The position numbers and the translations under genes were made by a program. A stretch of DNA of 64,000 bases. Source: an uncultured Actinomycetota bacterium (GTDB lineage: Bacteria > Actinomycetota > Actinomycetes > JACCUZ01). The stretch spans positions 28,797 through 92,796 of the forward strand of contig CAWHJC010000017.1 of assembly GCA_963829565.1 (NCBI GenBank), read 5' to 3'. This document shows, piece by piece, positions 816-39,516 of the stretch. Numbering within the stretch: the stretch's first letter is position 1; every line of letters begins with the position of its first letter. Under the pieces are notes generated by a model. The model saw only the letters and a list, made by a program, of their open reading frames with translations, had not been told where the DNA came from and did no database searches.

Positions 816-817
816 CG

Positions 818-2667: not shown

Positions 2668-3568
2668 CCATGACCGAGTCGATGCAGGACACTGCAACCG
2701 GACTCTCGACGACCAAGGCACCAACGGCACTGGAGGCCACGCCCATGTCCGCTGAGGCGGCCGCACCCCGCAGGACGCTCGGGACCGAGATCAACTCGGT
2801 CTTCGAGATGAGCGACGTCAGCGTGTTCTACGGCAACTACCAGGCCGTCCGCGAGGTCAGCATGCTGGTCGGGTCGCAAGGAGATCACGGCGCTGATCGG
2901 CCCGTCCGGCTGCGGCAAGAGCACCATCCTGCGCTGCTTCAACCGGATGAACGACCTGGTGCCCGGCGCTCGGGTCGCCGGCAAGATCACCTACCACGAC
3001 GAGGACCTGTACGCCGACTACGTCGACCCGATCGAGGTCCGCCGGCGGATCGGCATGGTCTTCCAGAAGCCCAACCCGTTCCCGAAGTCGATCTACGACA
3101 ACATCGCCTACGGGCCACGGGTCAACGGGGTCAAGAAGGGCCTCGACGACATCGTCGAGCAGGCCCTGACCGGCGCGGCCCTCTGGGACGAGGTCAAGGA
3201 CAAGCTGAAGGAGAGCGCGCTGGCGCTCTCGGGTGGTCAGCAGCAGCGGCTGTGCATCGCCCGGACGATCGCCGTCGAGCCCGAGGTGATCCTGATGGAC
3301 GAGCCGTGCTCGTCGCTCGACCCGATCGCCACCGCCAAGATCGAGGACCTGATGCACGACCTGGCGCGGGACTTCACGATCGTGATCGTCACCCACAACA
3401 TGCAGCAGGCCGCCCGCGTCTCGGACCGGACGGCGTTCTTCACCGCCGACGTGGACGACGACGGCGTCCGGCACGGCCGGCTGGTGGAGTTCGACAAGAC
3501 CGGCACGCATCTTCAGCAACCCCGGCGACCGCCGCACCGAGGACTACATCACCGGCCGCTTCGGCTAA
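2664..3568 (+). CDS. pstB: Phosphate ABC transporter ATP-binding protein PstB (frameshifts ~2875 and ~3510)
   Basis: ORF 2664..3593 N-terminus, then ORF 2947..3657 carrying Walker/ABC signature ([33 protein letters not shown]). The canonical C-terminus ...[22 protein letters not shown] appears in a third frame ending TAA ~3566-3568. Confidence 0.8.
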
Positions 3569-3584
3569 CCCCTCCCCGATCTTT

Positions 3585-3682
3585 TCCCGTTGATCATGCA
3601 GCTGTGGTTGTCGGCCGGCATCTGCCGCAGGTCACAGCCTCGCACACCTGTCGTTGATCATGCAGTAGTGGTTGCTGACCGG
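3585..3682. repeat. Two tandem copies of a ~30-bp motif (GTTGATCATGCAGCTGTGGTTGTCGGCCG and variant GTTGATCATGCAGTAGTGGTTGCTGACCG); left arm of an inverted-repeat pair
   Basis: Direct reading of the sequence. The reverse complement recurs at 4755-4842. Confidence 0.8.
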
Positions 3683-4754: not shown

Positions 4755-4842
4755 ACAACCACAGCTGCATGATCGGCGACGAGTCGGGAGGGGTGTGACC
4801 TGCGAGACGCGCGGCCGACAACCACAGCTGCATGATCAACGG
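4755..4842. repeat. Right arm: two inverted copies of the 3585-3682 motif (4808-4840 is a perfect reverse complement of 3586-3617)
   Basis: GCGGCCGACAACCACAGCTGCATGATCAACGGGG is the RC of CCCCGTTGATCATGCAGCTGTGGTTGTCGGCCGC. An internal variant sits at 4758-4790. Confidence 0.8.
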
Positions 4843-4858
4843 GGAAATGGGGTGGCGG

Positions 4859-5861
4859 CTACTCGAGGAAGAAGTGGACGACGTAGTAGACGCCGGCGGC
4901 GACGAGGCCGGCCATCGGGATCGTCAGCACCCACGCGATGAGGATGTTGCGCGCGACACGCCCAGCGCACCGCCTTCTGGCCGTGGACTGCGCCGACGCC
5001 CATGATGGATCCGGTGATGGTCTGCGTCGTCGAGATCGGCGCCTCGAAGACGTACGCCGTGGTGTAGAGCACCGACGACGCCGACGGTCTCGGCGGCGAA
5101 GCCGCGTCGGCGGGTCGATGTGGATGATCCGGCGCCCCAGGGTGCGCATGATGCGCCAGCCGCCGGAGTAGGTGCCGAGCGAGATCGCGCCGCGCGGCGA
5201 GGACGACCGACCCACCACGGGATGTCGAAGCTGTCCTGGTAGCCACCGGCGACCAGCGCCAGCACGATGACGCCCATCGTCTTCTGCGCGTCCTGCAGGC
5301 CGTGGCCGAGCGCCATCGCGGACGCCGACACGGTCTGCGCGAGACGGAACCCGCGGTTGACCGGTCCCGGCTTCCTGTTCTGGAACGCCCAGAGGATGCC
5401 CACCATGAGCAGGAAGGCGCCAGCGCCGCCGACGAGCGGCGACAGCAGCATCGGGTAGACGACCTTCTCGACCACGCTGAATCCCACTGCACGGTGACGC
5501 CGCCGGCCAGGCCCCCGCCGACCAGGCCGCCGATCAGCGCGTGCGAGGACGACGAGGGCATGCCGAAGTACCAGGTGATGAGGTTCCAGGTGATCGCCCC
5601 GAGCAGGGCGGCGAGCACCACCACCAGCGCGTGCTCGCCCGTCTCCGGTGCCTCGAGGACGCTGAAGACCGTCTTGGCGACCTTGGTGCCGAGGAACGCA
5701 CCGACGAAGTTCATGACCGCGGCCATCAGCAGGGCCACCCGCGGGGTGAGCGCGCGGGTCGACACCGACGTCGCGATCGCGTTCGCCGCGTCGTGGAAGC
5801 CGTTGGTGTAGTCGAAGATCAACGCGACCACGATGACCGCGATGATGGTGGCCAGCTCCAC
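4859..5861 (-). CDS. pitA: Low-affinity inorganic phosphate transporter PitA (frameshifted)
   Basis: ORF 4836..5861 N-terminus (MELATIIAVIVVALIFDYTNGFHDAANAIATSVSTRALTP...). Continues in ORFs 4924..5487 and 4859..5218 (...ILIAWVLTIPMAGLVAAGVYYVVHFFLE*). Immediately downstream of a DUF47 gene, the usual pairing. Confidence 0.8.
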
Positions 5862-5864
5862 CGG

Positions 5865-6488
5865 TCAGGACTCCTTGACCGCGATCGTCTCGACCGTGTT
5901 GGCCACGTGCTCGAACGCGTCGGCGGCGCCCTCGAGCTGGTCGACGACCTCCTTGAGCTTCAGCACGGTCAGCGCGTCGTACTCGCCGCTGAACAGCCGC
6001 GCCAGCAGCCGCCGGTAGACCTGGTCGGCCTGGTTCTCGAGCCGGTTGAGCTCGATCCAGAACTCGCTGAGGTCCTTCATCGAGCGCAGCCGCGGCATCG
6101 CGTCGGCGGTCAGCTCGGCGGCGCGCTCGAGGACGTCGACCTGGTCGGCGATCTCGGGCGGCAGCTCGTCGATGTTGTAGAGGACCACGAGGTCGACGGC
6201 CGCCTCCATGAAGTCCATGACGTCGTCCAGCGAGGACGCGAGGCGGTAGATGTCCTCGCGGTCGAAGGGCGTGACGAACGTCTCGTTGAGCTCCCGCATG
6301 ATCGCGTGGGTCGCCTCGTCGCCGGCGTGCTCGGCCGCGCGCATCTTCTCGGCGATCTGCTTGCGCTCGGCAGGGTCGGCGCCGAGCATCTCCTTGAGCA
6401 GGCCCGCGCCGACGATCAGGTTCTGCCCTGAGGTGGCGAACATGGCGTAGAAGCTGTTCTGGCGTGGGGTGAGGCGGATGCGCACGGG
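5865..6488 (-). CDS. DUF47 (PhoU-like, Pit accessory) protein
   Basis: ORF 5865..6512; ...RIRLTPRQNSFYAMFATSGQNLIVGAGLL...DELPPEIADQVDVLERAAE matches the DUF47/YkaA family. A GTG start near 6488 is more likely than the 6512 ATG. Confidence 0.75.
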   Translation of the reverse strand, partial: PVRIRLTPRQNSFYAMFATSGQNLIVGAGLLKEMLGADPAERKQIAEKMRAAEHAGDEATHAIMRELNETFVTPFDREDIYRLASSLDDVMDFMEAAVDLVVLYNIDELPPEIADQVDVLERAAELTADAMPRLRSMKDLSEFWIELNRLENQADQVYRRLLARLFSGEYDALTVLKLKEVVDQLEGAADAFEHVANTVETIAVKES

Positions 6489-6540
6489 CACTCCCGGATC
6501 AGGGCACGTCAATGGGGGGTGGAGGGTCCGGGGGTGGATG

Positions 6541-6819: not shown

Positions 6820-7012
6820 TTCCAGGGCCCCAGCCTAGGTATGACCCGGTTTGGCACGCCATGACCCGCCTGGGCCATTCCCCAGGTGGCCCGCAGGGGT
6901 CACTCACCGGAACCGCACCCTCACTGCTGAGGGGGTCACCTGGGTGACATGTCCCCCGAAGAGCAACATCCGGGCAAAGTCGCTTGCGCGGACCGGCTCA
7001 CGTCCGGGCTCA

Positions 7013-8365
7013 CGCCGTCGCCAGCGCGTCCAGGGCATCGGCAGAACACCTCGGTGTGCCGGTCGACGTCCGCCTCGGTCGTCGCCGGGGACATCAGCGC
7101 CATGTTGTGGAACGGCGTGAGCAGGATGCCGCGGTTGAGGGCGAACAGGTGCAGGAACTGCTCGAGCGCGAAGTCTCCGGCCGCGTGGGCCTCGGCGCCG
7201 GTCCGCGGCGCGGTCGGCGTGAAGGTGTACTCCCCACGGGCCCCCAGCCGGTTGCAGTGCCAGCCGCAGGCCGTGCCGGGCGATGCCGGCGTCGACGCCG
7301 TCGGCCCAGCGGTCCCCGAGCGGCAGCATCCGCGCGTACGCCTCCTCGGTCAGGACCTCGGCCAGCGTGACCCGCATCGCCGCGAGCGACAGCGCGTTGC
7401 CGGCCAGCGTCCCCCCGATCCCGCCGACGTCGATGTCCTCGAGCTCGACGGAGGCGGCGATCCGGTCGGCGACCTCGGCGGACATGCCGAACGCGCCGGC
7501 CGGGATGCCGCCGGCGATCGCCTTGCCCATCGTCATCAGGTCCGGCTCGAGGTCGTGCGCCCGGGTGTAGCCGCCGGGTCCGGCCGACAGGGTGTGGGTC
7601 TCGTCGATGATGAGCAGCACGTCGTGGCGGCGGGTGAGCTCGCGCAGCGCCGCGTGGTAGCCGTCGTCGGGCAGCACGATGCCGACGTTGGTCAGCGCCG
7701 GCTCGCACAGCACCGCCGCGACGTCGCCGGACGCCAGCGCGACCTCGAGGCCGGCCACGTCGTTGAACTCGACGACCCTCGTCGTCTCGGCCGGGTCGAC
7801 GGGAGGGCCGATGTTGCCGCGCCGCGCCACCGTACGGCCGGAGCCGTCCAGCGTCGCGAAGGTCTCGTCGACGCTGCCGTGGTAGCAGTAGTCGTGCACG
7901 ACGATCTTGCGCCGGCCGGTGAGGTGCCGGGCGTAGCGGATCGCGTGCCGGTTGGCGTCGGTGGCCGAGAGGGTGAACTGCCACAGCGGCAGCCCGAACC
8001 GCCGGCGCGAGCTCCTCGGCGACCACCACCGAGTCCTCGGTCGGGAGCATCGCGGTGATGCCGTGCCCGACCTGGTCGCGCACCGTCTCGACGGTCGGCT
8101 GCGGCGAGTGGCCCGTCATCGCGCCGGTGTCGCCGAGGCAGAGGTCGACGTAGTCGTGGCCGTCGACGTCGCGGAAGTGGGCACCCGACGCCTCGGCCAC
8201 GAAGACCGGGAACGGCCCGGGCCACTTGACCATCCAGCTCATCGGGACGCCGCCCGGCATGACCTCGCGGGCTCGCTCGAACAGCTCACCGACTGCGCGG
8301 GTGCTCGGCGACGAAGCGGTCGCGCTCGGCGGCGGTCAGTGCCGCGACGTGCTGGGGGTCGGTCA
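7013..8365 (-). CDS. Class III (PLP-dependent) aminotransferase, glutamate-1-semialdehyde aminomutase-like; frameshifted
   Basis: N-terminus MTDPQHVAALTAAERDRF...GELFERAREVMPGGVPMSWMVKWPGPFPVFVAEASGAHFRDVDGHDYVDLCLGDTGAM (ORF 7094..8260). Continues in ORF 6904..7899 (...VLLIIDETHTL...MTMGKAIAGGIP...). Probable C-terminus ...TEADVDRHTEVF.DALDALATA*. Confidence 0.7.
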
Positions 8366-13370: not shown

Positions 13371-14213
13371 GTGCCCGTGCGCAACATCCTGCCGAGGCAA
13401 TCCGCGCCCCATGGCCGGCGGCTGATCCTGACGGCTGCGGGACCGACGATGCACGCGGTGCTGCACGACCTGTCGCTGCCGTCGTTCCAGCGCTACGCGC
13501 AGCGCTGGGGCTACGCCGTGCGGGCGGTGGACCTGCCGTCCGACGGCTCCGGGGCGGACGCCGGGGCGCAGACCGCGAAGTGGGCGAAGGTGCGGCTGCT
13601 GCGCGAGGCGCTGGCCGACCACGAGATGGTGCTGTGGCTCGACGCGGATGTGCTCCTGCTGCGCGACGACGAGGACGTCGCCGACCACCTGCTGCCGGGC
13701 GACTTCCAGGCGCTCGCGCTCGAGCAGGTGCCGGCCGAGCACCGGGTCAACCCGAACACCGGCGTGTGGCTGCTGCGCGGCTCGGGTGCCCTCGATTTCC
13801 TGGACCAGGTCGAGCGGCTCGGCCCGCAGCCGGGGCCGTGGGCCGACCAGGGCGCGGTGCTGGCGGCGCTGGGCTGGGACCGGGGCGACGAGTCGTACGC
13901 GTGGGCGCGACCCGGCCGGGGCAGCCCGTACCAGACCCGGACGAGCTGGTTGCCGCCCGGCTGGAACCAGCCGTACGTCGACGGGCGGGCGGCCGAGGAC
14001 TGCTTCAACAGCTCGGCCGTGTCCTACGCCGACCGGCCCACCATCGCCGCCCCGCACGCACTCCACTTCATGGGCCTCACGCCGCAGGCGCGGTACCGGC
14101 ACATGAGCGCGCAGTCGGCCCTCACGACGACTATCGTCGCCGACGATGACAACGCCTGGCGCCGTCGACTGGGAGACGTTCACCTCGCTGCGTCGCAAGG
14201 CACGCCCGCGTGA
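13371..14213 (+). CDS. Putative nucleotide-diphospho-sugar (GT-A-like) glycosyltransferase
   Basis: WLDADVLLLRDDED (DxD-like) and overall composition. Family call is weak. Confidence 0.45.
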   Translation: MPVRNILPRQSAPHGRRLILTAAGPTMHAVLHDLSLPSFQRYAQRWGYAVRAVDLPSDGSGADAGAQTAKWAKVRLLREALADHEMVLWLDADVLLLRDDEDVADHLLPGDFQALALEQVPAEHRVNPNTGVWLLRGSGALDFLDQVERLGPQPGPWADQGAVLAALGWDRGDESYAWARPGRGSPYQTRTSWLPPGWNQPYVDGRAAEDCFNSSAVSYADRPTIAAPHALHFMGLTPQARYRHMSAQSALTTTIVADDDNAWRRRLGDVHLAASQGTPA

Positions 14214-15543
14214 GCTGAGGTACGCCGACGGCCGGGCGTTGCGCGAGCAGGTGCCGCGATCCAGCTTCGCCCTCTGGGAGCCTCCTGCTTCCCGGCTGGA
14301 TCCTGTCGACCAGATCACGGCGGCGAACGAGGGGCGGCTCGACTGGCTGGTCCCTGTCCGCGTCGGGCGGATGGTCGCGACGCCATACGCCTTCCTCCGG
14401 GGGGCGGCAGCGATCCACGCGGACGACTTCGCCGGCCTGCCCTCGACGGGCATCACCCCGGTCATCTGTGGTGACGCCCACCTGGGCAACTTCGGCTTCT
14501 ACGCCTCCCCCGAGCGAGACCTCGTGTTCGACCTCAACGACTTCGACGAGGCCCATCCAGGGGCCTGGGAGTGGGATCTCAGACGGCTCGTGGCGAGCGT
14601 CTGGGTCGCCGGGCGGCAGAACGGGTCCTCCGAGGACGACTGCGACCAGGCCGTACGCGGGTGCGTTGCTGCCTACCGGCAGCAGGTCGCCTACCTCGCC
14701 GAGCGCCCGCTCATCGGTCGGTCGTACGAGCGCCTCGATGTGGACCGGCTCCGTGACTCGGCAACCGACGAGACTCTCCTGCGCGAGATCGAACGGGCCG
14801 CCAAGCGGGCCAAGCGCCGCACCAGCGACCGCGCCTTGCCGCGGTTCACCGAGGAGCACGGCGGCGACCGGCGCATCGTCGAGGAGCCACCACTGATCAC
14901 CCACCTCTCCCACGAGGAGACCGAACGCGTCGCCGCCGCGCTGGACGAGTACCTCAGGACCCTCCCGCCGCACTGGGCCCGCATCCTGGGCGGCTACAGC
15001 ATCGTCGACATCGCCCACAAGGTCGTGGGCGTTGGTTCGGTCGGTCTCCGCGCCTACGTCGCCCTGTGCGAAGGGAGCAGCCCGGACGACGTCCTGTTCC
15101 TGCAGCTCAAGCAGGCACGACGGTCTGTGGTCGCCCGCCACGTCCACGGCGAGTCCGCCAGGCACTCGCACCAGGGTCAGCGAGTCGTGGAGTACCAGCA
15201 GGCGCTGCAGACAGTGAGCGACCCGTTCCTCGGGTGGACCAGCGTCGGAGAGCACCAGTACTACGTACGGCAGTTCCGGGACATGAAGGGCGCCATCACC
15301 ATCGACGGCATCGATCCCGGCGCACTGACCGACTACGCGGGCATCTGCGGGTTCCTCCTGGCGAAGGGTCACGCCCGCACGAGCGGAGCGTCGGTGATCG
15401 CCGGGTACGTCGGCTCCAGCGACAAGCTCGACGACGCGCTGTCACACTTCGCGGGTGTCTACGCGGACCAGACCGAGCGAGACCATCAGGCGCTTCGGGC
15501 CGCGGTCCGGCTGGGCAGGCTCCCTGCCGACCACGACCACTGA
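14146..15543 (+). CDS. DUF2252 domain-containing protein
   Basis: 465-aa intact ORF; ...DWLVPVRVGRMVATPYAFLRGAAAIHADDFAGLPSTGITPVICGDAHLGNFGFY... matches the DUF2252 family. The start may be downstream of the annotated ATG. Confidence 0.65.
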   Translation: MTTPGAVDWETFTSLRRKARPRELRYADGRALREQVPRSSFALWEPPASRLDPVDQITAANEGRLDWLVPVRVGRMVATPYAFLRGAAAIHADDFAGLPSTGITPVICGDAHLGNFGFYASPERDLVFDLNDFDEAHPGAWEWDLRRLVASVWVAGRQNGSSEDDCDQAVRGCVAAYRQQVAYLAERPLIGRSYERLDVDRLRDSATDETLLREIERAAKRAKRRTSDRALPRFTEEHGGDRRIVEEPPLITHLSHEETERVAAALDEYLRTLPPHWARILGGYSIVDIAHKVVGVGSVGLRAYVALCEGSSPDDVLFLQLKQARRSVVARHVHGESARHSHQGQRVVEYQQALQTVSDPFLGWTSVGEHQYYVRQFRDMKGAITIDGIDPGALTDYAGICGFLLAKGHARTSGASVIAGYVGSSDKLDDALSHFAGVYADQTERDHQALRAAVRLGRLPADHDH

Positions 15544-15814: not shown

Positions 15815-15960
15815 GGTCGCGACGATGGCACCTCCGGGGTCCAGCCGCCAAGGGGCCAACGGGCTCTGGCAGCCCCTGGCGGGCGTGTCGTCACCTCGTG
15901 TTTGCCTGTTGTTCACCTCCGCCCCTATCCAAGCCGCTTCGGCCCGGGCAACCTGAGCCG

Positions 15961-18177
15961 GTGACTGACCGCCCGCTGCCGCAGGCCGCCTCGGAGCCCG
16001 AGCCCCGACGCTTCGCCGACGACAGCGCCGAGGAGGTCGAGGAGGCAGCCGCGGCCAGCCTGCCGACTCCTTCGGCAGCCGACCTGCCCGCAGTCCGGTT
16101 CACCGACCGGGAGAGCAGCTGGCTGGACTTCAACGCGCGGGTCCTGGAGCTGGCGGAGGACGGGTCGGTCCCCCTCCTCGAGCGCGTCCGGTTCGCCGCC
16201 ATCTTCGCGCGCAACCTCGACGAGTTCTTCATGGTCCGCGTCGCCGCCCTCCGGAGACGGGTCGCGGCCGGCATCACGACCCCGAGCCCCACCGGGGCGA
16301 CGCCGCGCGAGCGGCTCACCCGCGTGTCCGAGGTGGCACACCGGCTGGCGACCCGGCACAGCGAGCTCTTCGCCGAGACGCTGCGTCCCGCACTCGATGC
16401 CGCCGGCATCCGTCTGGTCACGTGGGGCGAGCTGGACGAGCTCGAGACCAAACTGATGCGCGAGTTCTTCACCGAGCGAATCCTGCCGGTGCTGACTCCC
16501 CTGGCGGTGGACCCGGCACACCCCTTTCCGTACATCTCCGGGCTCTCGCTCAACCTCGCCGTCGTCGTCCAGGACGCCGAGTCGGGCGGCGAGCACTTCG
16601 CTCGGGTGAAGGTGCCCCCGCTGCTGCCCCGTTACCTGCCGGCAGACGACGGCTGGTCCCGGTTCGTGCCCGTCGAAGAGGTGATCGCAGCACATCTGCC
16701 CGACCTGTTCCCCGGGCTGACGGTGCTGGAGGCGTCCTCGTTCCGCGTCACCCGCAACGAGGACCTCGAGGTCGACGACGACGTCGACAACCTGCTACAG
16801 GCCCTGGAGCTCGAGCTGTCGCGCCGGCGGTTCGGGACCCCGGTGCGTCTCGAGGTTGCCGACGAGATGAGCGACCGGGTGCTGGCCCTGCTGGTGCGCG
16901 AGCTCGAGATCAGTGACGCCGAGGTCTACCGGCTCCGCGCACCGCTCGACCTCGCGGCACTGTGGCTGCTCGCCGACCTGGACCGGCCGGACTTGCGGTA
17001 CCCCGCGATGGTGCCTGAGACACCGGCGGCTCTCCGACCGACCGAGGGTGGGCAGGACATCTTCTCCGCCCTGCGGCGAGGTGACGTGCTGCTGCAGCAC
17101 CCCTACGACTCGTTCGCCACGACCGTCCAAGCGTTCATCGAGCAGGCGGCGAACGACCCGGCCACGCACGCCATCAAGCTGACTCTCTACCGGACCAGCG
17201 GTGAGTCCCCCATCGTCGACGCCCTCGTCGACGCGGCGATGGCTGGCAAGCAGGTGCTGGTCGTCGTCGAGATCAAGGCGCGCTTCGACGAGAAGGCGAA
17301 CATCCGCTGGGCCCGCAAGCTCGAGCAGGCGGGCTGCCACGTCGTCTATGGACTGGTCGGCCTCAAGACCCACTGCAAGCTGGCCCTCGTCGTCCGGTCG
17401 GAGGCCGACGCCGGGCTGCGTCGCTACGTGCACGTCGGGACCGGCAACTACAACCCGAAGACGGCTCGGGTCTACGAGGACATCGGCGTGCTCACAGCTG
17501 ACCCGGTCGTCGGCGCCGACGTGGCCGACCTGTTCAACCACCTGTCCGGCTACACCAAGCACATCGACTACGACTCGTTGCTCGTGGCACCTGACACCCT
17601 TCGCAGCGGCCTGTCGGACCTCATCCGGCGCGAGGCACGCAATGCCGAGAGGGGGCTGCCCGCCGGCATCTCGGCCAAGGTCAACAGCCTGGTCGACGCG
17701 TCCCTGATCGACGAGCTCTACCTGGCGTCCCGGGCGGGAGTGCCGATCGACCTGCTGGTCCGAGGGATGTGCGTCCTGCGACCAGGCGTCCCCGGGCTCT
17801 CGGAGAGCATCCGGGTGCGCAGCATCCTGGGTCGGTTCCTCGAGCACTCACGCGTCTACCGCTTCGAGAACGGCGGTGACCCGATGTTCTGGATCGGCAG
17901 CGCCGACATCATGGACCGCAACCTGGACCGCCGCGTCGAGGCGCTTGTGCGGGTCGGCGACGAGAAGGGTCGTCGCCAGCTGGACGAGATTCTGGACCTC
18001 GGGTGGCAGGACGACATCGACTGCTGGACGCTGTTGCCCGACGCGACGTGGCGTCGCTCGTCAGTCGGCTCGCCCGCGGGCGGCGACGAGTCGCCGGACG
18101 GCCGGGCTCTCACGGACTACCAGCAGCTGATCGTGGCACGCCGCGGGGCCGCCCACGGCGTCAGCGACCATGAGTGA
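15961..18177 (+). CDS. ppk: Polyphosphate kinase 1
   Basis: ~740 aa; ...[40 protein letters not shown]... and the C-terminal PLD-like HKxxD region (HCKLALV). GTG start at 15961 is in frame. Confidence 0.9.
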
Positions 18178-18710
18178 TCCGTCGTCGGCAGACGATCTGA
18201 GTCGGACCGGCCGAGCTAGCGACGGCAGAGCGATCGTGGTGGTCCGCCATGCGAGCGCCGGGAGCCGCAAGCAGTGGGCCGGGGACGACGACTGAGCGGC
18301 CGCTTGACGAGCGCGGGCACGCCCAGGCCGAGGCTCTGGTGCCGGTGCTCGCGGACTACCACCTGCACCGCGCCTATTCGGCCCCCGTCGTCCGGTGCCT
18401 GGAGACCATTGCGCCGTTCGCGCGCGCGAGCGGCCTGCCGGTGCACCAGGAGCCACTTCTCGCCGAGGAGGGCGCTGCCAAGGACGCCGACGGGGCGGTC
18501 GAGTGGCTGGTCGGCATCGCGGCGCTGCCGGAGTCGTCGATCGTGTGCACGCAGCGCGGCACGCTGACGGCAGTGTTTCCCGACCTGATGCGACGGCTCG
18601 GGTATCCCACGGAGGAGGTCCCCCGACTGGGCAAGGGCCGGGTGCTCGTCCTGCATCTTGCCGGGCCCGACCAGCTGGCCTCCGTCGACAGGCTCCCCAG
18701 ACCGTTCTGA
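18171..18710 (+). CDS. SixA-like histidine phosphatase family protein (frameshift ~18290)
   Basis: MSDPSS...[21 protein letters not shown] then frameshift into ORF 18249..18710 ([17 protein letters not shown]...). The RHA/G motif of the histidine-phosphatase superfamily is present. ATGA overlap with the ppk stop. Confidence 0.6.
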
Positions 18711-18797
18711 GTGCTGGACGCGGGCCGTCATCCGCTGTTCACACACCGGCCGGGCAGTCGCCCTTCGCGACACACCTCCGTTTCCTAGCGTCGCGGT

Positions 18798-19511
18798 GTG
18801 ACTCCGACACAACGCGGCGGACCCTTCGACGTGGTCGTCGTGAGCGACACCGAGACCGACCCGGCCAAGATCCTCCCGGGCATCCAGGGGTCCGTGCTGC
18901 GGCCCTGTGTGGTGACTCCCCGCGAGGTGGTCACCCTTGTCCCCCCACCCACGTGCGTCCTGCTCGACTGGCGAGCAGCCCGCGACCGGGCACTGCACGT
19001 CGTCGAGCTGCTCCGGGGCCGGGACCCGGCTGCGCCCGCGATCCTCGTTGTCCTCGGGGAGGACGCCCTGTCGGAGCTCGACGAAGGGTGGCAGGTCGAC
19101 GACGTCGTCCTGCGGACCGCCTCAGCCGCCGAGGTGTCGGCGCGGGTCCGCCTCAGGACCGCTGCCGCCGCGCGGGCCGCAGGACGCCTCGTCGACGGCA
19201 TCGAGCACGGCCCGCTGCGCATCGAGCGCAGCACCCACAGCGTCCTGCTCGACGGCCAGGAGGTGTCGCTGACGTTCCGGGAGTTCGAGCTGCTGGCCTA
19301 CCTGGCTGAACGGCCGGATCGGGTGTGTGGCCGGGCTGAGCTGCTCCACGTGGTGTGGGGCAAGTCGTCGATGAAGGGCGCCCGCACCATCGACGTGCAC
19401 GTCGCGAGGCTCCGCCGCAAGCTGGGGCACCGACACGGCGCACTGCTCGAGACCGTTCGCAGCGTCGGCTACCGGCTCAGAGTCCGTCCGCCCGCTGAGT
19501 GGGCGGCGTGA
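18798..19511 (+). CDS. OmpR-family winged-helix transcriptional regulator with atypical (degenerate) receiver domain
   Basis: C-terminal ...LTFREFELLAYLAERPDRVCGRAELLHVVWG...TIDVHVARLRRKLG...VRSVGYRL is an OmpR/PhoB wHTH. The N-terminal receiver lacks clear phospho-acceptor context. Confidence 0.7.
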   Translation: MTPTQRGGPFDVVVVSDTETDPAKILPGIQGSVLRPCVVTPREVVTLVPPPTCVLLDWRAARDRALHVVELLRGRDPAAPAILVVLGEDALSELDEGWQVDDVVLRTASAAEVSARVRLRTAAAARAAGRLVDGIEHGPLRIERSTHSVLLDGQEVSLTFREFELLAYLAERPDRVCGRAELLHVVWGKSSMKGARTIDVHVARLRRKLGHRHGALLETVRSVGYRLRVRPPAEWAA

Positions 19512-20460
19512 TGTCGAGAGACGGGAAGACCCGATCGGCTCGCTCGCCTTGCTCCAGGACGCTGCTTGCCGAGCCCACGATCCGCGAGTCCGGCCGACCG
19601 ACGAGCTCCTCGTCCTTCTCGTCGTAGGGGAAGAGGCTCAGGACGTGGCGCATGGCCTCGACCCGGCCGCGCTTCTTGTCGTTGCTCTTGATGACCGTCC
19701 AGGGCGCCGACTCGGTGTCGGTGTAGTAGAACATCGCCTCCTTGGCGTCCGTGTACCGTCCCCAACGGTCGAGCGACGCGAGGTCCGTCGGCGAGAGCTT
19801 CCACTGCCGGACCGGGTCGACCTGCCGGATCACGAACCGGGTGTGCTGCTCGTCGCGGGAGACCGAGAACCACAGCTTGACCAGGTGGATGCCGGACCGG
19901 ACCCACATGCCCTCCAGCTGTGGGGCCTCCCGCATGAACTCTCGGTACTCCTCGTCGGTGCAGTAGGCCATCACGTGCTCGACGCCGGCCCGGTTGTACC
20001 AGGACCGGTCGAACAGCACGATCTCGCCGGCGGACGGCAGGTGCTCGACGTATCGCTGGAAGTACCACTGCGTGCGCTCGCGTTCGTTCGGCTTGGCCAG
20101 CGCCACGACCCGCGCGCCTCGCGGGTTGAGGTGCTCCATGAACCGCTTGATCGTGCCGCCCTTCCCGGCGGCGTCCCGGCCCTCGAAGACGATGACGAGC
20201 CGCTCGCCGGTGTCCTTGATCCACTCCTGCAGCTTCAGCAGCTCGATCTGCAGCAGCCGCTTGATGCGGTCGTAGTCCTCCCTCACCATGCGGGACTCAT
20301 AGGGGTAGCCCTCCCGCCAGGTGTCCACGGGAGTGCCGTCCGCCCGCAGCAGGAGCGGGTCGTCGTCGGCGTCGTCGACGACCCGGAACTGGGTCAGGTC
20401 GAGACGGTCCGAGATGTCGTCCACGGGTCGCCTCCTCCGGCATCCGACGCCACCAGGCAT
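19477..20460 (-). CDS. ppk2: Polyphosphate kinase 2 family (polyphosphate:nucleotide phosphotransferase)
   Basis: ...YESRMVREDYDRIKRLLQIELLKLQEWIKDTGERLVIVFEGRDAAGKGGTIKRF...FDRSWYNRAGVEHVMAY... is PPK2 (Walker A GKGG, lid motif). Confidence 0.85.
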   Translation of the reverse strand: MPGGVGCRRRRPVDDISDRLDLTQFRVVDDADDDPLLLRADGTPVDTWREGYPYESRMVREDYDRIKRLLQIELLKLQEWIKDTGERLVIVFEGRDAAGKGGTIKRFMEHLNPRGARVVALAKPNERERTQWYFQRYVEHLPSAGEIVLFDRSWYNRAGVEHVMAYCTDEEYREFMREAPQLEGMWVRSGIHLVKLWFSVSRDEQHTRFVIRQVDPVRQWKLSPTDLASLDRWGRYTDAKEAMFYYTDTESAPWTVIKSNDKKRGRVEAMRHVLSLFPYDEKDEELVGRPDSRIVGSASSVLEQGERADRVFPSLDITPPTQRADGL

Positions 20461-20581
20461 TGCCGCACACACGACCGGACGCGAGGCGACGGAGAGGTGA
20501 ACGCGAAGTGTCCGGACGGCGGACAGCGACGGTCCGCCGGCGGACCGACTGTTCACCAACTCCGGCTAGTCTCCGGACACC

Positions 20582-22095
20582 ATGACGACCCCGGCGCCGG
20601 ACCTGCAGCTCCCCGACGGCGCGGCACTCGATCTCGGCGGCCGTGGCGGACGCCCTGGCCGCCAGGTTCGACGTCACCACGGGACCCCGTGAGCTGCTCC
20701 ACAGGACCCGGCTCGACACGTTCGACCGGCGGCTGGCTGCTGCCGGGCTCATTCTCGAGCACCAGACCACCGGGTCCTCGGAGCGGCTTATGCTGCGCGG
20801 GCCGGGCACCCCGAGCGGCCAGGTCGTGGTCCCGACCGAGGCCCTTCGCTGGCCGGCTCTGGCGGACGCTCTTCCGCCCGGCCCGGTGCGGGATGCCGTC
20901 GCACCCGTCATGGGGATCCGCGCCCTGGTCAGCGTGACCGACGACCGTCGTCGGGTACGCCGGCTGGAGCTGCGCAACGGCGACCAGAAGCTGGTCGCCC
21001 GCGTAGAGGCCGACGAGCCGGCCGGCGCGGGCTCCACGTCGCCGGCCTCGGTGACGGTCCAGCCGCTGCGGGGTTATGACGATCAAGGGCGGTGGGCGCG
21101 TCCGGTCGCTCACGGCCATCGGCCTCCGCCCGGTCGAGCCGGCTGATGCTCAGCCGGTGCGGCACCCGGCGCCGACCGTCGACCTGGACAGAGGGACCCC
21201 CGCGCCCGTGCTGCTGGCCGTCGAGCTCGGGGCGTTCCTCGCGGCGATCCGCGAGAACCTCCCGGGCCTGCTCGCCGACATCGACACCGAGTTCCTGCAT
21301 GACGTCCGCGTCGCCGTGCGCCGGACTCGGTCGACCCTCAAGCTGGGACGCCCCGCGCTGCCCGCGGAGATGCGGGACCGCTGGGAGCCGGCGTTCCAGT
21401 GGGTAGGAGACCTCACCACCCCTGTCCGCGACCTCGACGTCTACCAGCTCGACCTCCCCGCCATGGCGGGCTGGCTCGTCGCGGCCGAACCAACGGACCT
21501 GGAACCGTTCGAGGCCCACCTCGGTCGCCGACGTCGCGCCGAGCGCCGAGCGCTGGTGCGCGGACTGCAGTCCGCCCGGTTCGAGCAGCTGCTCACCGAC
21601 TGGCAGCAAGCGTTGGCCGAGCTGGCGGCGGGCCTGCAGTCCGATGACGGTCTCGACGCGGGGGAGCTGGCGGACCGCAGCATCTCGCGCGCTGTCCGTC
21701 GGGTGGCGCGAGGGGGGCGGGTCATCGACGGGGACTCGCCGGCCGAGAGCCTGCACACGCTGCGCAAGCGCTGCAAGGAGCTCAGGTACGCGCTCGAGGT
21801 GTTCGCCCCGGTGACGGACAAGGCCGACCGCAAGCAGGCCGTCGCCGACCTGAAGGTGCTGCAGGACGTCCTGGGCCGCTTCCAGGACGCCGAGGTGCAA
21901 CGCATCGCCCTGCGCGGCTTCGCTGCCGAGATGATGGCCGACGGGACGTCGGCTCAGGCCGTGCTCGCGATGGGCGAGCTGGTCGGGCACCTGGACGGCG
22001 AGCAGGACCGGGCCCGGCATGAGTTCGACGCGGTGTTCGCCCGGTTCGTCCGGCCGGCCAGCATCCGGCGGCTGCGCCGACTCGGGGGCGCCTGA
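20582..22095 (+). CDS. CYTH + CHAD domain protein (polyphosphate-granule-associated family), frameshifted
   Basis: N-terminal CYTH-like fragments (ORFs 20643..21146), then CHAD (ORF 21076..22095: ...FLHDVRVAVRRTRSTLKL...LRKRCKELRYALEVFAP...). Confidence 0.7.
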
Positions 22096-22833
22096 TGCGG
22101 GTCCTGGCGACGTACAACATCAAGGGTGGTGTGGGAAAGACGTCGACGGCCGTGAACCTGGCCTACCTTTCCGCGCGCGACGGGATGCGAACGCTCCTGT
22201 GGGACCTGGACCCGCAGGGCGCGGCGACCTTCCTCTTCCGGGTCAAGCCACGTGTCAAGGGCGGTGGCAAGGCCCTGGTGACCAGGAAACGGCCGCTCGA
22301 TGCGGCCATCAAGGCGACCGACTTCGACGGGCTCGACCTGCTGCCCGCCGACTTCAGCTATCGCCACATGGATCTGCAGCTCGACGACACCAAGCGCCGG
22401 ACGCGGCGCCTGGGCCAGCTGCTGAGCAGCGTCGCCGACGACTACGACATCGTCTTCCTGGACTGCCCGCCGAGCGTCTCGCTGGTGTCCGAGAACGTCC
22501 TGCACGCCGCGGACGTCCTGCTGGTCCCGCTGATCCCGGCGACGTTGTCGCTGCGGACGTTCGACCAGCTCACCAGGTTCGTGGCCGACGCGGACGGGAA
22601 GCACCCCGAGCGTCGTGGCGTTCTTCTCGATGGCTGACCGGCGGAAGCGGCTGCACCGTGAGGTGATCGACGGGATCCCTCGCGACGGGGTCAGGATCAC
22701 CGACACCGTCGTGCCCGCGCTCTCGGTCATCGAACAGATGGCCGAGCACCGTGCACCCGTGCCGGTCTTCGCGCCGAGGAGCCGGGCGGCGGCGAGCTAC
22801 GAGGACCTCTGGCGGGAGGTGCGTCCACGATGA
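22095..22833 (+). CDS. ParA/MinD-family P-loop ATPase (frameshift ~22610)
   Basis: MRVLATYNIKGGVGKTSTAVNLAYLSA (deviant Walker A KGGVGKT) ...DIVFLDCPPS... Continues in ORF 22615..22833 (AFFSMADRRKRLHREV). ATGA overlap with the upstream CHAD gene. Confidence 0.8.
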
Positions 22834-23726
22834 GCCGGCCCATGGTGCGGGCCGCCGGTGGCGTCCTGTGGCGCGGCGACCCCACGTCCCCGAAGGTCGC
22901 GCTGGTGCACCGGCCGCGGTACGACGACTGGTCGCTGCCCAAGGGCAAGTCGAAGACGAACGAGCACCTGCTCGTCACCGCCATCCGCGAGGTGACCGAG
23001 GAGACCGGGTTCCGGGCGACGATCGGCCCGCGCCTCACCACAGTTCGCTATCGCGTCGTGACCGGCGGTCGGCTGGCGGACAAGACGGTGACCTACTGGG
23101 CGATGCGGTGTGCCGACGGATCGTTCAGCCCGAACCGCGAGGTCGACGAGATCCGGTGGCTGACCCTGGCAGCCGCGCGCCGGCAGCTCACCGCGGCGAC
23201 CGACCGCACGGTGCTGGACGCCTTCCTCCGAGCCAGCCGCGACACCCAACCCCTTCTCCTGGTGCGTCACGGCGCGACCCATCCCGTGGCCCGGCGCTCC
23301 CGGCGCACGAGCACCAGGAGGGACCTCAGCCGGCTCGGACGGGAGCAGGCTGCCGCCTTGGTCCCGGTCCTGAGCGCACTCGGCGCGACCCAGCTGATGA
23401 GCGCCGACGTGCCGGCCTGCACCGAGATGCTGCGGCCGTATGGCGTCACCGCCGGCCTGGCCGTGCTGGCCGATGCCCAGTTGGCCCGACGCGGCTTCGA
23501 AGGAAACGAGTCGCTCATCGCCGACCGGCTTCGCCGGGACTCCTCCGACGGGCTCCTCGTCGTCTGCGGCACGCAGCGAGTCATCAGCGGACTGGTCAGC
23601 ACCTTCGCGCACGGTTCGCCAGCCCGACCGCCTCACGACGCGGTGGTCAAGAAGGGTGGCTGGTGGCTCCTGCACCACGAGGACGGCGCCGTCCGGGCGT
23701 TCGAACGACACGATCCCGCGGCATGA
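22830..23726 (+). CDS. NUDIX hydrolase fused to histidine-phosphatase domain (MutT1-like)
   Basis: NUDIX box (LPKGKSKTNEHLLVTAIREVTEETG) followed by RHGAT...histidine-phosphatase signature (LLLVRHGATHP). Mycobacterial mutT1 is likewise linked to ppk1. Confidence 0.75.
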   Translation: MSRPMVRAAGGVLWRGDPTSPKVALVHRPRYDDWSLPKGKSKTNEHLLVTAIREVTEETGFRATIGPRLTTVRYRVVTGGRLADKTVTYWAMRCADGSFSPNREVDEIRWLTLAAARRQLTAATDRTVLDAFLRASRDTQPLLLVRHGATHPVARRSRRTSTRRDLSRLGREQAAALVPVLSALGATQLMSADVPACTEMLRPYGVTAGLAVLADAQLARRGFEGNESLIADRLRRDSSDGLLVVCGTQRVISGLVSTFAHGSPARPPHDAVVKKGGWWLLHHEDGAVRAFERHDPAA

Positions 23727-23742
23727 GTCGGCAGCGACACCG

Positions 23743-25242
23743 ATGAGGTCACACGTCGAGATCGAGACCAAGTACGACGTCCCGTCGGACGCGTTGCTGC
23801 CGGACCTGGTCGGTTCGGCCAACGTCCGCTCGTCGGTGTCCGGCGCCGTGATGGTGCTGACCGCCACCTACTACGACACCGCCGACCACGATCTCGGCTC
23901 TGCCGGTGCAACGCTCCGGCGTCGGACGGGCGGAGCCGACGACGGCTGGCACCTCAAGCTGAGGCTCAGCGGCGGCGAGCGCCTGGAGCTGCACCGCGCG
24001 CTAGGACGGGGGCGGACCCCGCCGGCCGCGCTCACCGGACTCGTCACGGCGATCGTCCGTACGGAGGCGGTCGTGCCGGTGGCGACCCTCGTCACGCACC
24101 GGACCGTCCATCAGCTGCTCGGTGAGGAGGGCGCCGTGCTCGCTGAGCTGGCCGACGATTCAGTCACAGCGCAGCGCCACGACGTGGAGGCCGTGGACCT
24201 GGCGTGGCGCGAGTGGGAGATCGAGCTCGTGGACGGCGACCGGTCGACCCTCGCCGATCTCGATGCCTCCGTCCGAAGATCGGGCATCGAGCCGGCGGCC
24301 AGCGAGTCGAAGATCGGCCGGGTCCTGGGCTCTGCTCCGACCGCGGCTGCCGCCGATCCAACGCCGATCCGACGGAAAGACCCCGCGGCGAAGGTGATGT
24401 CAGTTGCGTTGCAGCAGGCGTTGTCCGAGCTGCTGGCCGCCGACCCGCTGGTCCGGCTGGACCGGCCGGGTGCGGTGCCCCGCATGTCTCGTGCCCTCCA
24501 TCGGGTGAGAGCGGTCCTGTCATTACGCCGCCAGGTCGTCGGTGACGTCAGCGCGCCCCTCGCGGAGCTCACCTGGCTGCAATCGGTCATCTCCCCCGCG
24601 GAGCGGCTGGACGCGGCGGCGGCACAAGTCGTCGAGAACGTGACGGCTCAGCCGCGCGACCTCGTCATCGGTCCGGTGAAGCGGCGCCTCGATCGCGAGC
24701 TAGCGGGGTCTCGTCGGCGGCAGCTGACCGAGGTCAACGCGGCCCTCGACGCGGACCGTTACCTGGGGATGCTGGACAGCCTGTCGGAGCTGGCGACCCG
24801 CGATGCGGTCGGCTCTGCGTCGACGGCCCGCGCCGTGGACGTGATCCCCGACCTCGCGGATCGCGCTGTCCACCGGGCCGAGCGGCGGATCGGCCAGCTG
24901 GTCCGCGCCCAGTCCGCGGACGAGCAGCGGTGGCTGCTGGGTGGTGCGCAGCGGGCGGTCGAGCGCGCCCGGCTCGCTGCCCGGCTGGCGGCGGCGGCAT
25001 CGTCAGGGTCCCGGTCGCGACCGGAAGGCATCCTCGATGAGGCCGCTGCTGCCCTCGACGAGCTGGCGGTCAGCCGCCGCGCCCAAGAGCTGCTACGAGA
25101 TGCCGGTGTGCAGGCCCATCTCGCCGGCGAGAACGGCTTCACCTTCGGCCTCCTGCACGGCCTGGAGGCGTTGCGGGCTGTCGAGGTGCAGCGGCGCCTC
25201 AAGGTGACGCGCAAGCACCTCAAGCGTCTCCGCAAGAACTAG
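23743..25242 (+). CDS. CYTH + CHAD domain protein (second copy)
   Basis: MRSHVEIETKYDV... (CYTH N-terminus) plus C-terminal CHAD-like helical region. ~500 aa, in frame within ORF 23440..25242. Confidence 0.7.
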   Translation: MRSHVEIETKYDVPSDALLPDLVGSANVRSSVSGAVMVLTATYYDTADHDLGSAGATLRRRTGGADDGWHLKLRLSGGERLELHRALGRGRTPPAALTGLVTAIVRTEAVVPVATLVTHRTVHQLLGEEGAVLAELADDSVTAQRHDVEAVDLAWREWEIELVDGDRSTLADLDASVRRSGIEPAASESKIGRVLGSAPTAAAADPTPIRRKDPAAKVMSVALQQALSELLAADPLVRLDRPGAVPRMSRALHRVRAVLSLRRQVVGDVSAPLAELTWLQSVISPAERLDAAAAQVVENVTAQPRDLVIGPVKRRLDRELAGSRRRQLTEVNAALDADRYLGMLDSLSELATRDAVGSASTARAVDVIPDLADRAVHRAERRIGQLVRAQSADEQRWLLGGAQRAVERARLAARLAAAASSGSRSRPEGILDEAAAALDELAVSRRAQELLRDAGVQAHLAGENGFTFGLLHGLEALRAVEVQRRLKVTRKHLKRLRKN

Positions 25243-25254
25243 ACAGGTCGCTGG

Positions 25255-26137
25255 TCATCCCGCCGTGAGGTCGCGGAGGTCGTCGACGATCCGCGGCATC
25301 TGCGCCATCAAGGACAGGTGCCCCTCGTCGTCGTAGAGGTGCACACGCGCGCCGGGGATGTGCGCAGCGAGCCACTTCCCGTGCGCGAAGGGAACCATCA
25401 GGTCGTGGGCGCCCTGCCACACCGACACCGGCACCGTGATGTCGGCGAGCTCGAAGCCCCAGTGCCGGGCGAAGGCGTAGTCGTCGTCGCGCCAGCCCTC
25501 GATGCCCGTCGACACCGAGCGGCGGAACATCTCGGCCAGCACTTCGGCGGACTCGCCGGTAAGCGCGGCGCGGTCCACGTCGTCGACCAGCCCGCCGAGC
25601 ATGTCGGCGACCTGGGGCCCGGTGACTGCGACGAGGTCCGGCACCTGCTTCTCGAGCCACCGCGGCAGGTCGGCCGGTGTCCTGGTGGCGAGGCCGAACT
25701 CCTCGACGTTCTCCGGCCCCATCCCGGCGAACCAGTCCAGGCCCTTCGCGTCCAACGGAGCCACCCCGCCGAGTGTCGCCGCGGCCAGCGCACCGGTCGG
25801 GCAGCAGCGCCGCGCACGCGAGGGCGTGCGGGCCGCCGCCGGACCAGCCGAGCACCACGAACCGGTCGTGGCCGAGGTGGTCGAGGATCGTCGCAACGTC
25901 GGGGCCGGCGTCGGCGACGGCCCTTCCCTCGTACGTCGTGGAGCCGGCGTAACCGGGCCGCGAGTAGCAGATGTACCGCCAGCCGAGCCCGGCCGCCGCC
26001 TCGGCGATGTCGGGGACGCAGACGGCGGCCGTCGGCGTACCGGAGATGTAGACCAGTGGCAGTCCCTCCGCCGGCCCGGACGTCACGACCTCCAGGTCAC
26101 GCCCGTCCGCCGTCGGCACCGTCAACCACTCGGTCAC
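25255..26137 (-). CDS. Alpha/beta-hydrolase fold protein (frameshift ~25800)
   Basis: ...RFVVLGWSGGGPHALACAAL (GxSxG nucleophile elbow) in ORF 25220..26137, continuing in ORF 25255..25896. Confidence 0.65.
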
Positions 26138-35566: not shown

Positions 35567-36252
35567 ATGGCTGCACAGCTCATCGACCTCAGTCACCGCA
35601 TCAAGCCGGGATGCTCACCCATCCCGGGCTGCCCGGGCCGGAATGGGAGCCGTTCCGGACCCGCAAGGAGTACCGGGAGTCCAGCGGTACGGATTTCCAG
35701 ATCGACCGGGTGTGCATGGTGGGCAACACCGGCACCTACCTGGACAGCCCGTTCCACCGGTTCGCCGACGGCGGCGACCTCGCCAGCCTGTCGCTGGCGG
35801 CGGTGGCGGACCTGCCGATCCTCGTCGTGGACGCGCGAGGAAGCGGGCGGGCGGTCGGGCCAGACCTGCTCGCCAGCGCCCTGAGCGAGGTCGACGAAGC
35901 CATCGCGGGGGCCGCCGTCCTGCTGCACACGGGCGGGGACAAGTCATGGGGCACTCCGGAATACGCCGACGAAGCACCGTTCCTGACCGGCGAGGGCACG
36001 GACTGGCTGCTGGAGCGCCGCCCAGCGCTCGTCGGCATCGACGCGGTCAACATCGACGACCTGGCCGACGCGAGCCGGCCGGCGCACACCCGGCTGCTGG
36101 GATCACAGGTGCTGGTGCTCGAGCACCTGGCCGGGCTGGGTGCCGTTCCCACCACCGGTGCTCGGCTGCACGCCGCGCCCCCGGCCTGGCAGGGCGTCGG
36201 CACATGGCCGGTCCGCGCGTACGCCCTGGTTCCCGAGGTCGCACGGGACTAG
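35567..36252 (+). CDS. Cyclase-family protein (kynurenine formamidase-like; frameshift ~35610)
   Basis: MAAQLIDLSHRIKPG | MLTHPGLPGPEW...YLDSPFHRFADG...LHTGGDKSWG...VGIDAVNID (cyclase family). Confidence 0.65.
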
Positions 36253-36325
36253 TCCTGAGGCTCCCGGGGCATGCTCCAACGGCAGGAAGCCAACCGGCGA
36301 GCCGTGGGACCTCAGCAGCGTCAGC

Positions 36326-39300: not shown

Positions 39301-39516
39301 GTCGTCCTCCCGCCCGGCGCCATGCTGCTGCTCTTCACCGACGGACTCGTCGAGGACCGCCAGCTCCCGGTCGACCACGGGCTCGAGACGCTGCGGCTGG
39401 CCATCGCCTCGGCGCGGACCCCGGAGGAGATGTGCGACCTGGCCTCGGCGGCGCTCGGCCGGGACACCCAGCACGACGACGACACGGCGATCCTCGCGGT
39501 GTCGATGGACGTCTGA
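36326..39516 (+). CDS. Multi-domain signalling protein: N-terminal HATPase_c (RsbW/anti-sigma-factor-like kinase) + GAF domains + C-terminal PP2C/SpoIIE phosphatase (~1060 aa, two frameshifts)
   Basis: N-terminus ...VISDVEMVVTELTSNALMHAGAPVELRV...TGRGLALV (GHKL ATPase). Middle GAF-like segments (ORFs 36140..38755, 38073..39659). C-terminus ...GGDWYDV...GDVMGRGLQAAALMGQL...LLLFTDGLVE... (SpoIIE/PP2C; ORF 38782..39516). Confidence 0.7.

Follow-up and report, generated by a model that had tools for sequence, protein, structure and literature searches.

The window analysed here is a stretch of 64,000 nucleotides (nt) from an uncultured Actinomycetota bacterium, with a G+C content of about 72%, and the subject of this report is a gene for a ParA-like ATPase together with the CHAD gene that precedes it. 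The two genes open a string of four genes on the same strand, which encodes a CHAD protein (CHAD1), the ATPase, a fusion of NUDIX and His_Phos_1 domains, and a second protein with CYTH and CHAD domains (CHAD2). The stop codon of CHAD1 overlaps the start codon of the ATPase gene (TGATG, 22093-22097), and the stop codon of the ATPase gene overlaps the start codon of the NUDIX gene (ATGA, 22830-22833). The initial annotation had described overlapping stop and start codons along this string, which is correct for these two junctions, but the NUDIX gene and CHAD2 are separated by a gap of 16 nt. It had also placed the ATPase in a phosphate and polyphosphate (polyP) supercluster of 25 kb. The conserved unit is smaller. 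It is a two-gene module in which a pseudo-CYTH-CHAD protein of about 505 amino acids (aa) is followed by a ParA-like ATPase of 245 aa, and this pair is widespread, reciprocal, near-obligate and translationally coupled.

An exhaustive search with the ATPase sequence, after repair of a frame break, returned 471 clusters (50% identity) at E<=1e-30. The context of the gene was scanned with one genome per species in the best 80 of at least 596 matches, which are 58-86% identical to the query and nearly all labelled actinobacterial, from Dermatophilaceae and Streptosporangiaceae to Mycobacteriales and Acidimicrobiales. A CHAD1 orthologue lies directly upstream of ParA on the same strand in all 77 informative loci among these 80; in the remaining three the ParA gene is at a contig end and has no upstream sequence. 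A CHAD1 orthologue also lies upstream of ParA in four of four further contigs. The relationship was followed in the other direction in metagenome contigs with downstream sequence, where an ATPase gene follows 51 of 52 CHAD homologues at 38% identity or more but only 3 of 16 at 31-37% identity. Synteny with CHAD genes in other genomes had been set beforehand as a test of the original proposal, and it was found in 77 of 77 and 51 of 52 cases, respectively. Of 81 pairs, 71 have a CHAD stop codon that overlaps the ParA start codon; the overlap is 4 nt long in 65 pairs and 1 nt long in 6. Neither ppk1 nor ppk2 was found within 7 kb on either side of the pair in any of the 80 species loci, therefore the pair and not the supercluster is the conserved unit, and the ppk neighborhood is lineage-specific. 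The gene downstream of the pair is usually convergent and of varied function, and in most actinobacterial species the operon consists of CHAD1 and ParA alone, followed by a convergent, unrelated gene. An alpha/beta-hydrolase gene, as found after the four-gene string in the window, is the commonest downstream neighbor of the pair in other species too (13 of 75). The proposal had been framed for Actinobacteria. The pair does occur in actinobacterial loci, but it is not specific to them, as there are members in other phyla. Cultured organisms that carry the pair are Paracoccus aestuarii DSM 19484, Prauserella muralis DSM 45305 and Antrihabitans spp.

The 120 best-scoring proteins listed share 79-87% identity with the repaired ATPase, and almost all of them are intact, with a length of 244-246 aa. 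Residues 8-16 read NIKGGVGKT, a deviant Walker A motif with the signature lysine, which is invariant in an alignment of 15 sequences and present in all distant members. The WDLDPQ and LDCPP (FLDCPP) columns are also invariant in this alignment and are read here as the likely Walker A' and B motifs. The protein matches Pfam AAA_31 (Table 1) and CbiA (E 2.5e-13). The nearest PDB entry is Myxococcus xanthus ParA (8RAY, E 1e-25), which aligns to residues 2-242 with about 30% identity, and other matches are Thermus Soj (3e-19), McdA (1e-8) and MinD (1e-7). The earlier assignment to the ParA/MinD-type ATPases with the deviant Walker A motif KGGVGKT is thus borne out by the motif, the AAA_31 match and the full-length alignment to 8RAY. 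Members of the subfamily are labelled 'chromosome partitioning protein' in the source databases. No curated NCBIfam model, partition models included, reaches its cut-off for the ATPase. An AlphaFold2 (AF2) model of the ATPase, which was built on the shallow alignment of 15 sequences and had a pLDDT of 61, was set aside.

CHAD1 is best described as a pseudo-CYTH domain, with the eight-stranded beta-tunnel fold in its predicted structure and without the catalytic motif, fused to a CHAD domain. The match to Pfam CHAD (PF05235) scores 177.9 bits against a cut-off of 25.6, and 72 of 72 orthologues match this family. Pfam CYTH (PF01928) was found in none of the 72 orthologues at E<=0.01, and hhalign of CHAD1 against CYTH gave a weak probability of 20%. 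The AF2 model of CHAD1 has a pLDDT of 88.4. Its N-domain matches more than 30 triphosphate-tunnel (TTM) structures with E values of 4e-5 to 1e-3, its C-terminal half superposes on the polyP-bound CHAD structure 6QVA with a TM of 0.89 (Foldseek; the range to 6QVA and 3E0S is 0.89-0.92), and the model as a whole aligns full length to E. coli YgiF (5A60). The catalytic and metal-binding ExExK motif is missing from the CHAD1 family (present in 0 of 60 and 1 of 72 sequences) and because of this loss CHAD1 is probably not an enzyme. The initial annotation had counted two CYTH+CHAD proteins at this locus. For CHAD2 both domains are detected by Pfam, but in CHAD1 the CYTH fold is seen in the model only and ExExK is absent. 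CHAD domains have been shown to bind polyP and not nucleic acids, and CHAD proteins are found on granules (PMC6537752, PMC9239181). The CHAD1 family keeps invariant His, Arg and Lys columns within its CHAD domain, and these columns together with homology to CtCHAD and others suggest that CHAD1 binds polyP and is localized to granules.

The other two genes of the string are less widely conserved with the pair. The NUDIX fusion covers the full length of the NCBIfam MutT1 profile (NF052459) at 219.7 bits, below the cut-off of 475. The earlier description of a MutT1-like fusion of NUDIX and histidine phosphatase domains is right as to the architecture, but the score falls short of the equivalog cut-off, and the protein is better regarded as MutT1-like than as an equivalog. 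As the third gene of the operon it is lineage-specific. In the species scan it follows ParA in only three loci. It occupies this position in L004, L007 and L010, as well as in 11 of the closest metagenome loci. CHAD2 is above cut-off for both of its domains (CHAD 58.2 bits against 25.6; CYTH E 7e-11), carries an intact CYTH motif (EIETK) and has a YgiF-like architecture. It is a divergent paralogue of CHAD1, and CHAD1 queries give no match to it. An ORF (open reading frame) of 600 aa at 23440-25242 was rejected as the CHAD2 gene; it matches Pfam CYTH only, whereas from the start at 23743 both CYTH and CHAD pass.

Links between the ATPase and polyP enzymes were found in other lineages. In P0130, P0131, P0149 and P0167, with genes at L085 6001-7515 and L087 3077-4711 among them, the ATPase is naturally fused to a CYTH domain at its C-terminus, and the ExExK motif is intact in P0130, P0149 and P0167 (EIEFK and ELEFK among them). 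A CHAD gene precedes both fusion genes whose context was examined (P0149 and P0130). Further ATPase-CYTH fusions are P0181, P0190 and P0209; some of the ATPase-CYTH fusions have a degenerate motif and no Pfam match, yet keep an 'HFFDT'-like motif. P0256 is a CHAD-ATPase fusion. It is one of at least two cases, together with L038 5444-7768, in which CHAD and ParA form one continuous ORF or protein, either as true fusions or as indel artefacts. In P0201 (561 aa) the ATPase is fused to a HAD domain similar to sucrose-6F-phosphate phosphohydrolase (S6PP, E 1e-65) and not to CYTH. Distant members with about 40-46% identity to the query carry the labels Deferribacterota, Bacteroidota, Calditrichota, Spirochaetia, and Alpha-, Gamma- and Deltaproteobacteria. 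One of them lies in an operon with the order His_Phos-CHAD-ParA-Ppx-Ppx-Ppk1, a Calditrichota contig has NUDIX-Ppk1-CHAD-ParA, and Paracoccus aestuarii DSM 19484 has CHAD-ParA-CYTH-NUDIX, which are the same four functions as in the four-gene string of the window. The ATPase-CYTH fusions and the Ppx and Ppk1 operons in other phyla are independent evidence of a role linked to polyP.

The features of the window are collected in Table 1. Reading frames were picked by third-position GC (GC3) and then checked with Pfam. The phosphate and polyP genes listed in the initial annotation (pstSCAB, pitA with DUF47, ppk1, PPK2, a histidine phosphatase and a regulator) are all present by Pfam. The stretch that it described begins at position 15961, which falls within ppk1. 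The ppk1 gene, the 153-aa His_Phos_1 gene and the gene for the GlnR-type regulator are lineage-specific neighbors outside the conserved module. The His_Phos_1 protein is similar to the C-terminal half of MutT1 and recurs beside polyP genes, as it follows ppk1 in the window and is directly upstream of CHAD-ParA-Ppx-Ppx-Ppk1 in a distant lineage (L090 2875-3336). The true start of PPK2 is likely the ATG at 20443, which gives an intergenic region of 138 nt shared with CHAD1, and the divergent layout of PPK2 and CHAD1 recurs in L096 and L127. This region (20444-20581) contains two inverted GTTCACC heptamers at 20496-20502 (-) and 20551-20557 (+), a sequence similar to the core of PhoP boxes in actinobacteria. 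GTTCACC is overrepresented throughout the window (19 observed against 5.8 expected). This enrichment was rejected as a PHO-box signal, as the copies lie mostly within coding sequence, where codon usage is their probable cause. A promoter and terminator scan of the window was uninformative at 72% GC. Further along, at 36140-39516, a SpoIIE-type PP2C phosphatase is encoded after an ORF that has HATPase_c_2 and GAF domains. This order resembles partner-switching modules; the frame plot suggests a possible frame change near 38000.

Table 1. Genes and domains assigned in the window, with positions, strand and supporting matches
Feature	Position	Strand	Evidence and remarks
pstS, pstC, pstA, pstB	1-3657	+	Pfam
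pitA (PHO4)	4836-5864	-	Pfam; frame-broken
DUF47/PhoU_div	5865-6512	-	Pfam
DUF2252 protein	14146-15543		E 6e-133; directly upstream of ppk1
ppk1	15898-18177	+	Pfam, NCBIfam
His_Phos_1 protein, 153 aa	18249-18710	+	Pfam
GlnR_1st+Trans_reg_C regulator (GlnR-type atypical response regulator)	18798-19511	+	Pfam, NCBIfam
PPK2	19477-20559	-	Pfam E 8e-97; divergent from CHAD1
CHAD1 (pseudo-CYTH + CHAD), about 503 aa	20582-22095	+	Pfam CHAD E 4e-52; frame-broken
ParA/Soj-class deviant Walker A ATPase, 245 aa once the frame is repaired	22095-22833	+	Pfam AAA_31 E 2.9e-36
NUDIX + His_Phos_1 fusion	22830-23726	+	Pfam
CHAD2, canonical CYTH (EIETK) + CHAD	23743-25242	+	Pfam CYTH E 7e-11, CHAD E 1.6e-15
alpha/beta-hydrolase	25255-25896	-	convergent, 12 nt past the end of the four-gene string

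It is very probable that the ATPase works with CHAD proteins on polyP. More specifically, the two proteins may form a ParA/adaptor system that is dedicated to polyP granules and positions or spaces them, to which we give an even chance. Positioning is favored for two reasons: ParABS and McdAB offer an analogy, and CHAD is a module that binds granules. In such a system CHAD1 would sit on the granule via its CHAD domain, and its N-terminal CYTH domain, which has lost the catalytic motif, would serve as an interaction module. The ATPase would dimerize on binding ATP and would then bind a polyanionic matrix, most probably the nucleoid. Granule-bound CHAD1 would capture ParA and turn it over, and the cycle, as in ParABS and McdAB, would space the granules, prevent them from coalescing and distribute them to the daughter cells. 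The products of the accompanying CYTH, NUDIX, Ppx and Ppk genes would be granule-associated polyP enzymes. The physical interaction between ParA and CHAD1, the identity of the matrix and the positioning outcome are steps that we infer.

Several observations weigh against the positioning of granules. The substitution R238E in M. xanthus ParA abolishes non-specific DNA binding (PMC12462528), and the residue equivalent to R238/R218 is Ile, Leu or another non-basic residue in every clade member examined. Because the R238 equivalent is hydrophobic throughout the clade, nucleoid binding is not predicted with confidence. The other canonical arginine position, equivalent to R189, is kept throughout the clade as R183, which is followed by K184. 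We take R189 and R218 to be the numbers of the DNA-binding arginines in B. subtilis Soj. With one canonical arginine lost and the other kept, the matrix bound by the ATPase cannot be called from sequence. The R183-K184 site is widened to RRKR only in Actinobacteria, and the 'DRRKRLHR' or RRKR patch was rejected as a hallmark of the family, as only R-K is found clade-wide in distant and unlinked relatives. No obvious ParB-like N-terminal stimulatory peptide was seen in CHAD1. Two relatives of the ATPase with 38-46% identity have no CHAD neighbor, one in Solitalea lacus (CP091740.1; L177 6001-6744) and one on pMAQU02 of Marinobacter nauticus (L176 6001-6747); they mark the edge of the CHAD-linked clade. 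The Marinobacter copy adjoins the genes for pyruvate kinase and phbB. In the window itself both core genes are frame-broken. Finally, the CYTH-ATPase fusions and the enzyme-rich operons fit the recruitment of enzymes at least as well as they fit positioning.

ATP-gated enzyme recruitment is the main rival to positioning, and we regard it as possible but doubtful. Here a ParA-ATP dimer would dock on granule-bound CHAD1, in a manner similar to MinD and MinC, and would recruit or activate enzymes that process polyP ends, such as an active CYTH/TTM polyphosphatase, a NUDIX hydrolase or Ppx. The mobilization of polyP would be coupled to the ATP level of the cell, and positioning would not be the primary output. 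The covalent fusion of ParA to a catalytically intact CYTH domain (EIEFK/ELEFK) in several lineages is in line with recruitment, as are the CYTH and NUDIX genes that follow ParA in Paracoccus and in the window, the Ppx-Ppx-Ppk1 genes that follow it in the distant branch and the absence of the R238-equivalent DNA-binding arginine. It has also been reported that CHAD raises the polyphosphatase activity of YgiF and that Ddp1-type NUDIX enzymes are endopolyphosphatases (PMC6537752). However, most actinobacterial operons consist of CHAD1 and ParA alone, no enzyme is consistently encoded alongside them, and the CYTH domain of CHAD1 itself has no catalytic motif. Moreover, the two-gene ParA-partner modules that have been studied to date are for the most part positioning systems.

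The matrix could also be polyP. It is unlikely, in our estimate, that the ATP-bound dimer binds the polyP polymer or its CHAD coat and not DNA, although the loss of the R238-type arginine, the retained R183-K184 site (RRKR in Actinobacteria) and the fusions of the ATPase to polyP-acting CYTH domains would all agree with it. If it is true, this would be the first ParA-family system that patrols an inorganic polymer, and granule fission, granule fusion and the access of enzymes would be controlled from the granule surface.

The frame breaks could mean that the module is decaying in this genome. The ATPase ORF has one extra C after GAG at about 22611, which divides it into 22095-22637 (180 aa) and a part in the +1 frame (22615-22833), and its conserved C-terminus (VVAFFSMADRRKRLHREV) runs on in the +1 frame past the 180 codons. 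CHAD1 is spread over three frames, with tblastn high-scoring segment pairs in two of them, and, compared with an intact relative of 503 aa (P0391/L094, 93% nucleotide identity), has one inserted G at each of two places, about 20636 and about 21097. If these insertions are real, the ATPase and CHAD1 would be very recent pseudogenes here, and the presence of the CHAD1 break in public gene calls (P0271, 339 aa, and P0392) as well as the occurrence of three +1 insertions within about 2 kb speak for this reading. However, it is improbable. The breaks belong to the assembly or genome at large, not to the ParA-CHAD cluster in particular: pitA is also split, over three frames that bear consecutive PHO4 profile segments (e.g. 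4950-5864), and the frame plot suggests phase switches within the pst genes (pstC at about 845-1764, pstB at about 2730-3657), in an aminotransferase gene (6996-8314) and elsewhere. GC3 bias and amino-acid conservation continue undiminished past each shift, and the CHAD1 gene is intact in P0391/L094, which comes from an independent short-read assembly. The pattern is typical of consensus indel errors, and on these grounds the single-base insertions in CHAD1 and the ATPase gene are probably consensus errors of the assembly.

Two further readings have little in their favor. Metallochaperones are found in the SIMIBI class, of which the ParA/MinD family is a part, and the ATPase could in principle be an assembly factor or metallochaperone that either assembles the histidine-rich CHAD protein or supplies it with metal. 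PolyP binding and metal binding are combined in CHAD folds according to the title of a 2019 paper by Werten et al. (cited in PMC8003754). Such a role is very improbable, as the sequence is similar to ParA/Soj and its matches to CooC, UreG, HypB and Mrp are marginal, and in the sequences examined we noticed no CxC-type metal motif. Clustering with Soj/ParA that have an adjacent parB or parS had been set beforehand as an outcome that would refute the proposal; no ParB (Pfam ParBc) was found among 75 downstream neighbors or in the window ORFs scanned, nor any parS-like site within 3 mismatches in the window. An ordinary chromosome or plasmid partition ParA (Soj) that lies near phosphate genes by chance, as the database labels and the closest solved structures (8RAY and Thermus Soj) might suggest, is effectively refuted by these two results, by neighborhoods that vary while the CHAD partner is always there, by the failure of NCBIfam partition models to reach cut-off, and by the best plasmid homologues, which are at most 47% identical and of which the Paracoccus one examined (H3) is CHAD-linked.

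The pair can be compared with several known systems. Like McdA/McdB, it is a two-gene module without a centromere, in which a ParA/MinD-family ATPase is combined with an unrelated partner that resides on a large inclusion in the cytoplasm, and the proposed logic of a matrix-bound ATP dimer that is turned over by a cargo-bound partner is the same. Unlike McdB, the partner is a CYTH-fold/CHAD protein, with no relation to McdB detected by sequence. The cargo would be an inorganic polymer granule, and the ATPase is nearer to Soj (E 1e-25) than to McdA (E 1e-8), with DNA binding that is only putative. Chromosomal ParABS (8RAY; Thermus and B. subtilis Soj) provides the best sequence match among solved structures, and it shares the deviant Walker A motif with its signature lysine and one of the two Soj arginine positions (R183). 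It differs in that the present system has no ParB or parS, has Ile/Leu at the R238/R218 equivalent, has an obligate CHAD partner and is only about 30% identical. E. coli YgiF, a CYTH/TTM-CHAD short-chain polyphosphatase (5A60), has the two-domain architecture found in CHAD1 by fold and in CHAD2 by sequence, but CHAD1 lacks ExExK. To our knowledge ygiF is not paired with a ParA gene.

Related gene clusters have been described. In Streptomyces the gene for a CHAD phosin, PptA, forms one phosphate-controlled transcription unit with ppk and a NUDIX hydrolase gene (PMC8003754). This ppk-pptA-NUDIX operon has the same functional theme as the window; however, it has no reported ParA-type ATPase, and PptA is a stand-alone CHAD protein. 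A folD-ppk-parA-(CYTH-)CHAD cluster of Acidithiobacillus was drawn in 2019 and 2024 and called 'highly conserved' (PMC6416229, PMC10892726). It has the same ppk/parA/CHAD neighborhood, and its parA, which may belong to the subfamily analysed here, was labelled as plasmid or chromosome partition and never interpreted. In the literature searched the neighborhood is mentioned only in passing, in Acidithiobacillus, and we found no work on the function of a CHAD-coupled ParA. AlgP of P. aeruginosa is a histone-H1-like DNA-binding protein that spaces polyP granules via the nucleoid (PMC9239181). It has no ATPase and is unrelated to CHAD1-ParA in sequence and mechanism. A 2025 review gives AlgP as the only protein so far assigned to polyP granule spacing and asks whether any energy-consuming system acts in granule positioning (PMC13052382), and a 2026 preprint states that the positioning mechanism still awaits discovery (PMC13081873). 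An ATPase that positions polyP is not known (PMC13052382, 2025; PMC13081873, 2026).

PolyP granules are found throughout bacteria and are regularly spaced or faithfully inherited in several species, and apart from AlgP in Pseudomonas no machinery that positions them is known. The CHAD1-ParA pair would be a ParA-family system whose class of partner and presumed cargo are both new. Its conservation is reciprocal and extends to hundreds of species in several phyla, fusions to polyP enzymes occur in some cases, and the CHAD-locked ParA is the best available, testable candidate for an ATP-driven machinery that organizes bacterial polyP granules. If this is true, a large class of catalytically dead CYTH-CHAD proteins would gain a role, and the list of ParA cargoes would be extended. 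The Dermatophilaceae include polyphosphate-accumulating organisms used in wastewater treatment. As the closest relatives of the pair described here are from this family, the finding may also bear on phosphorus-removing actinobacteria.

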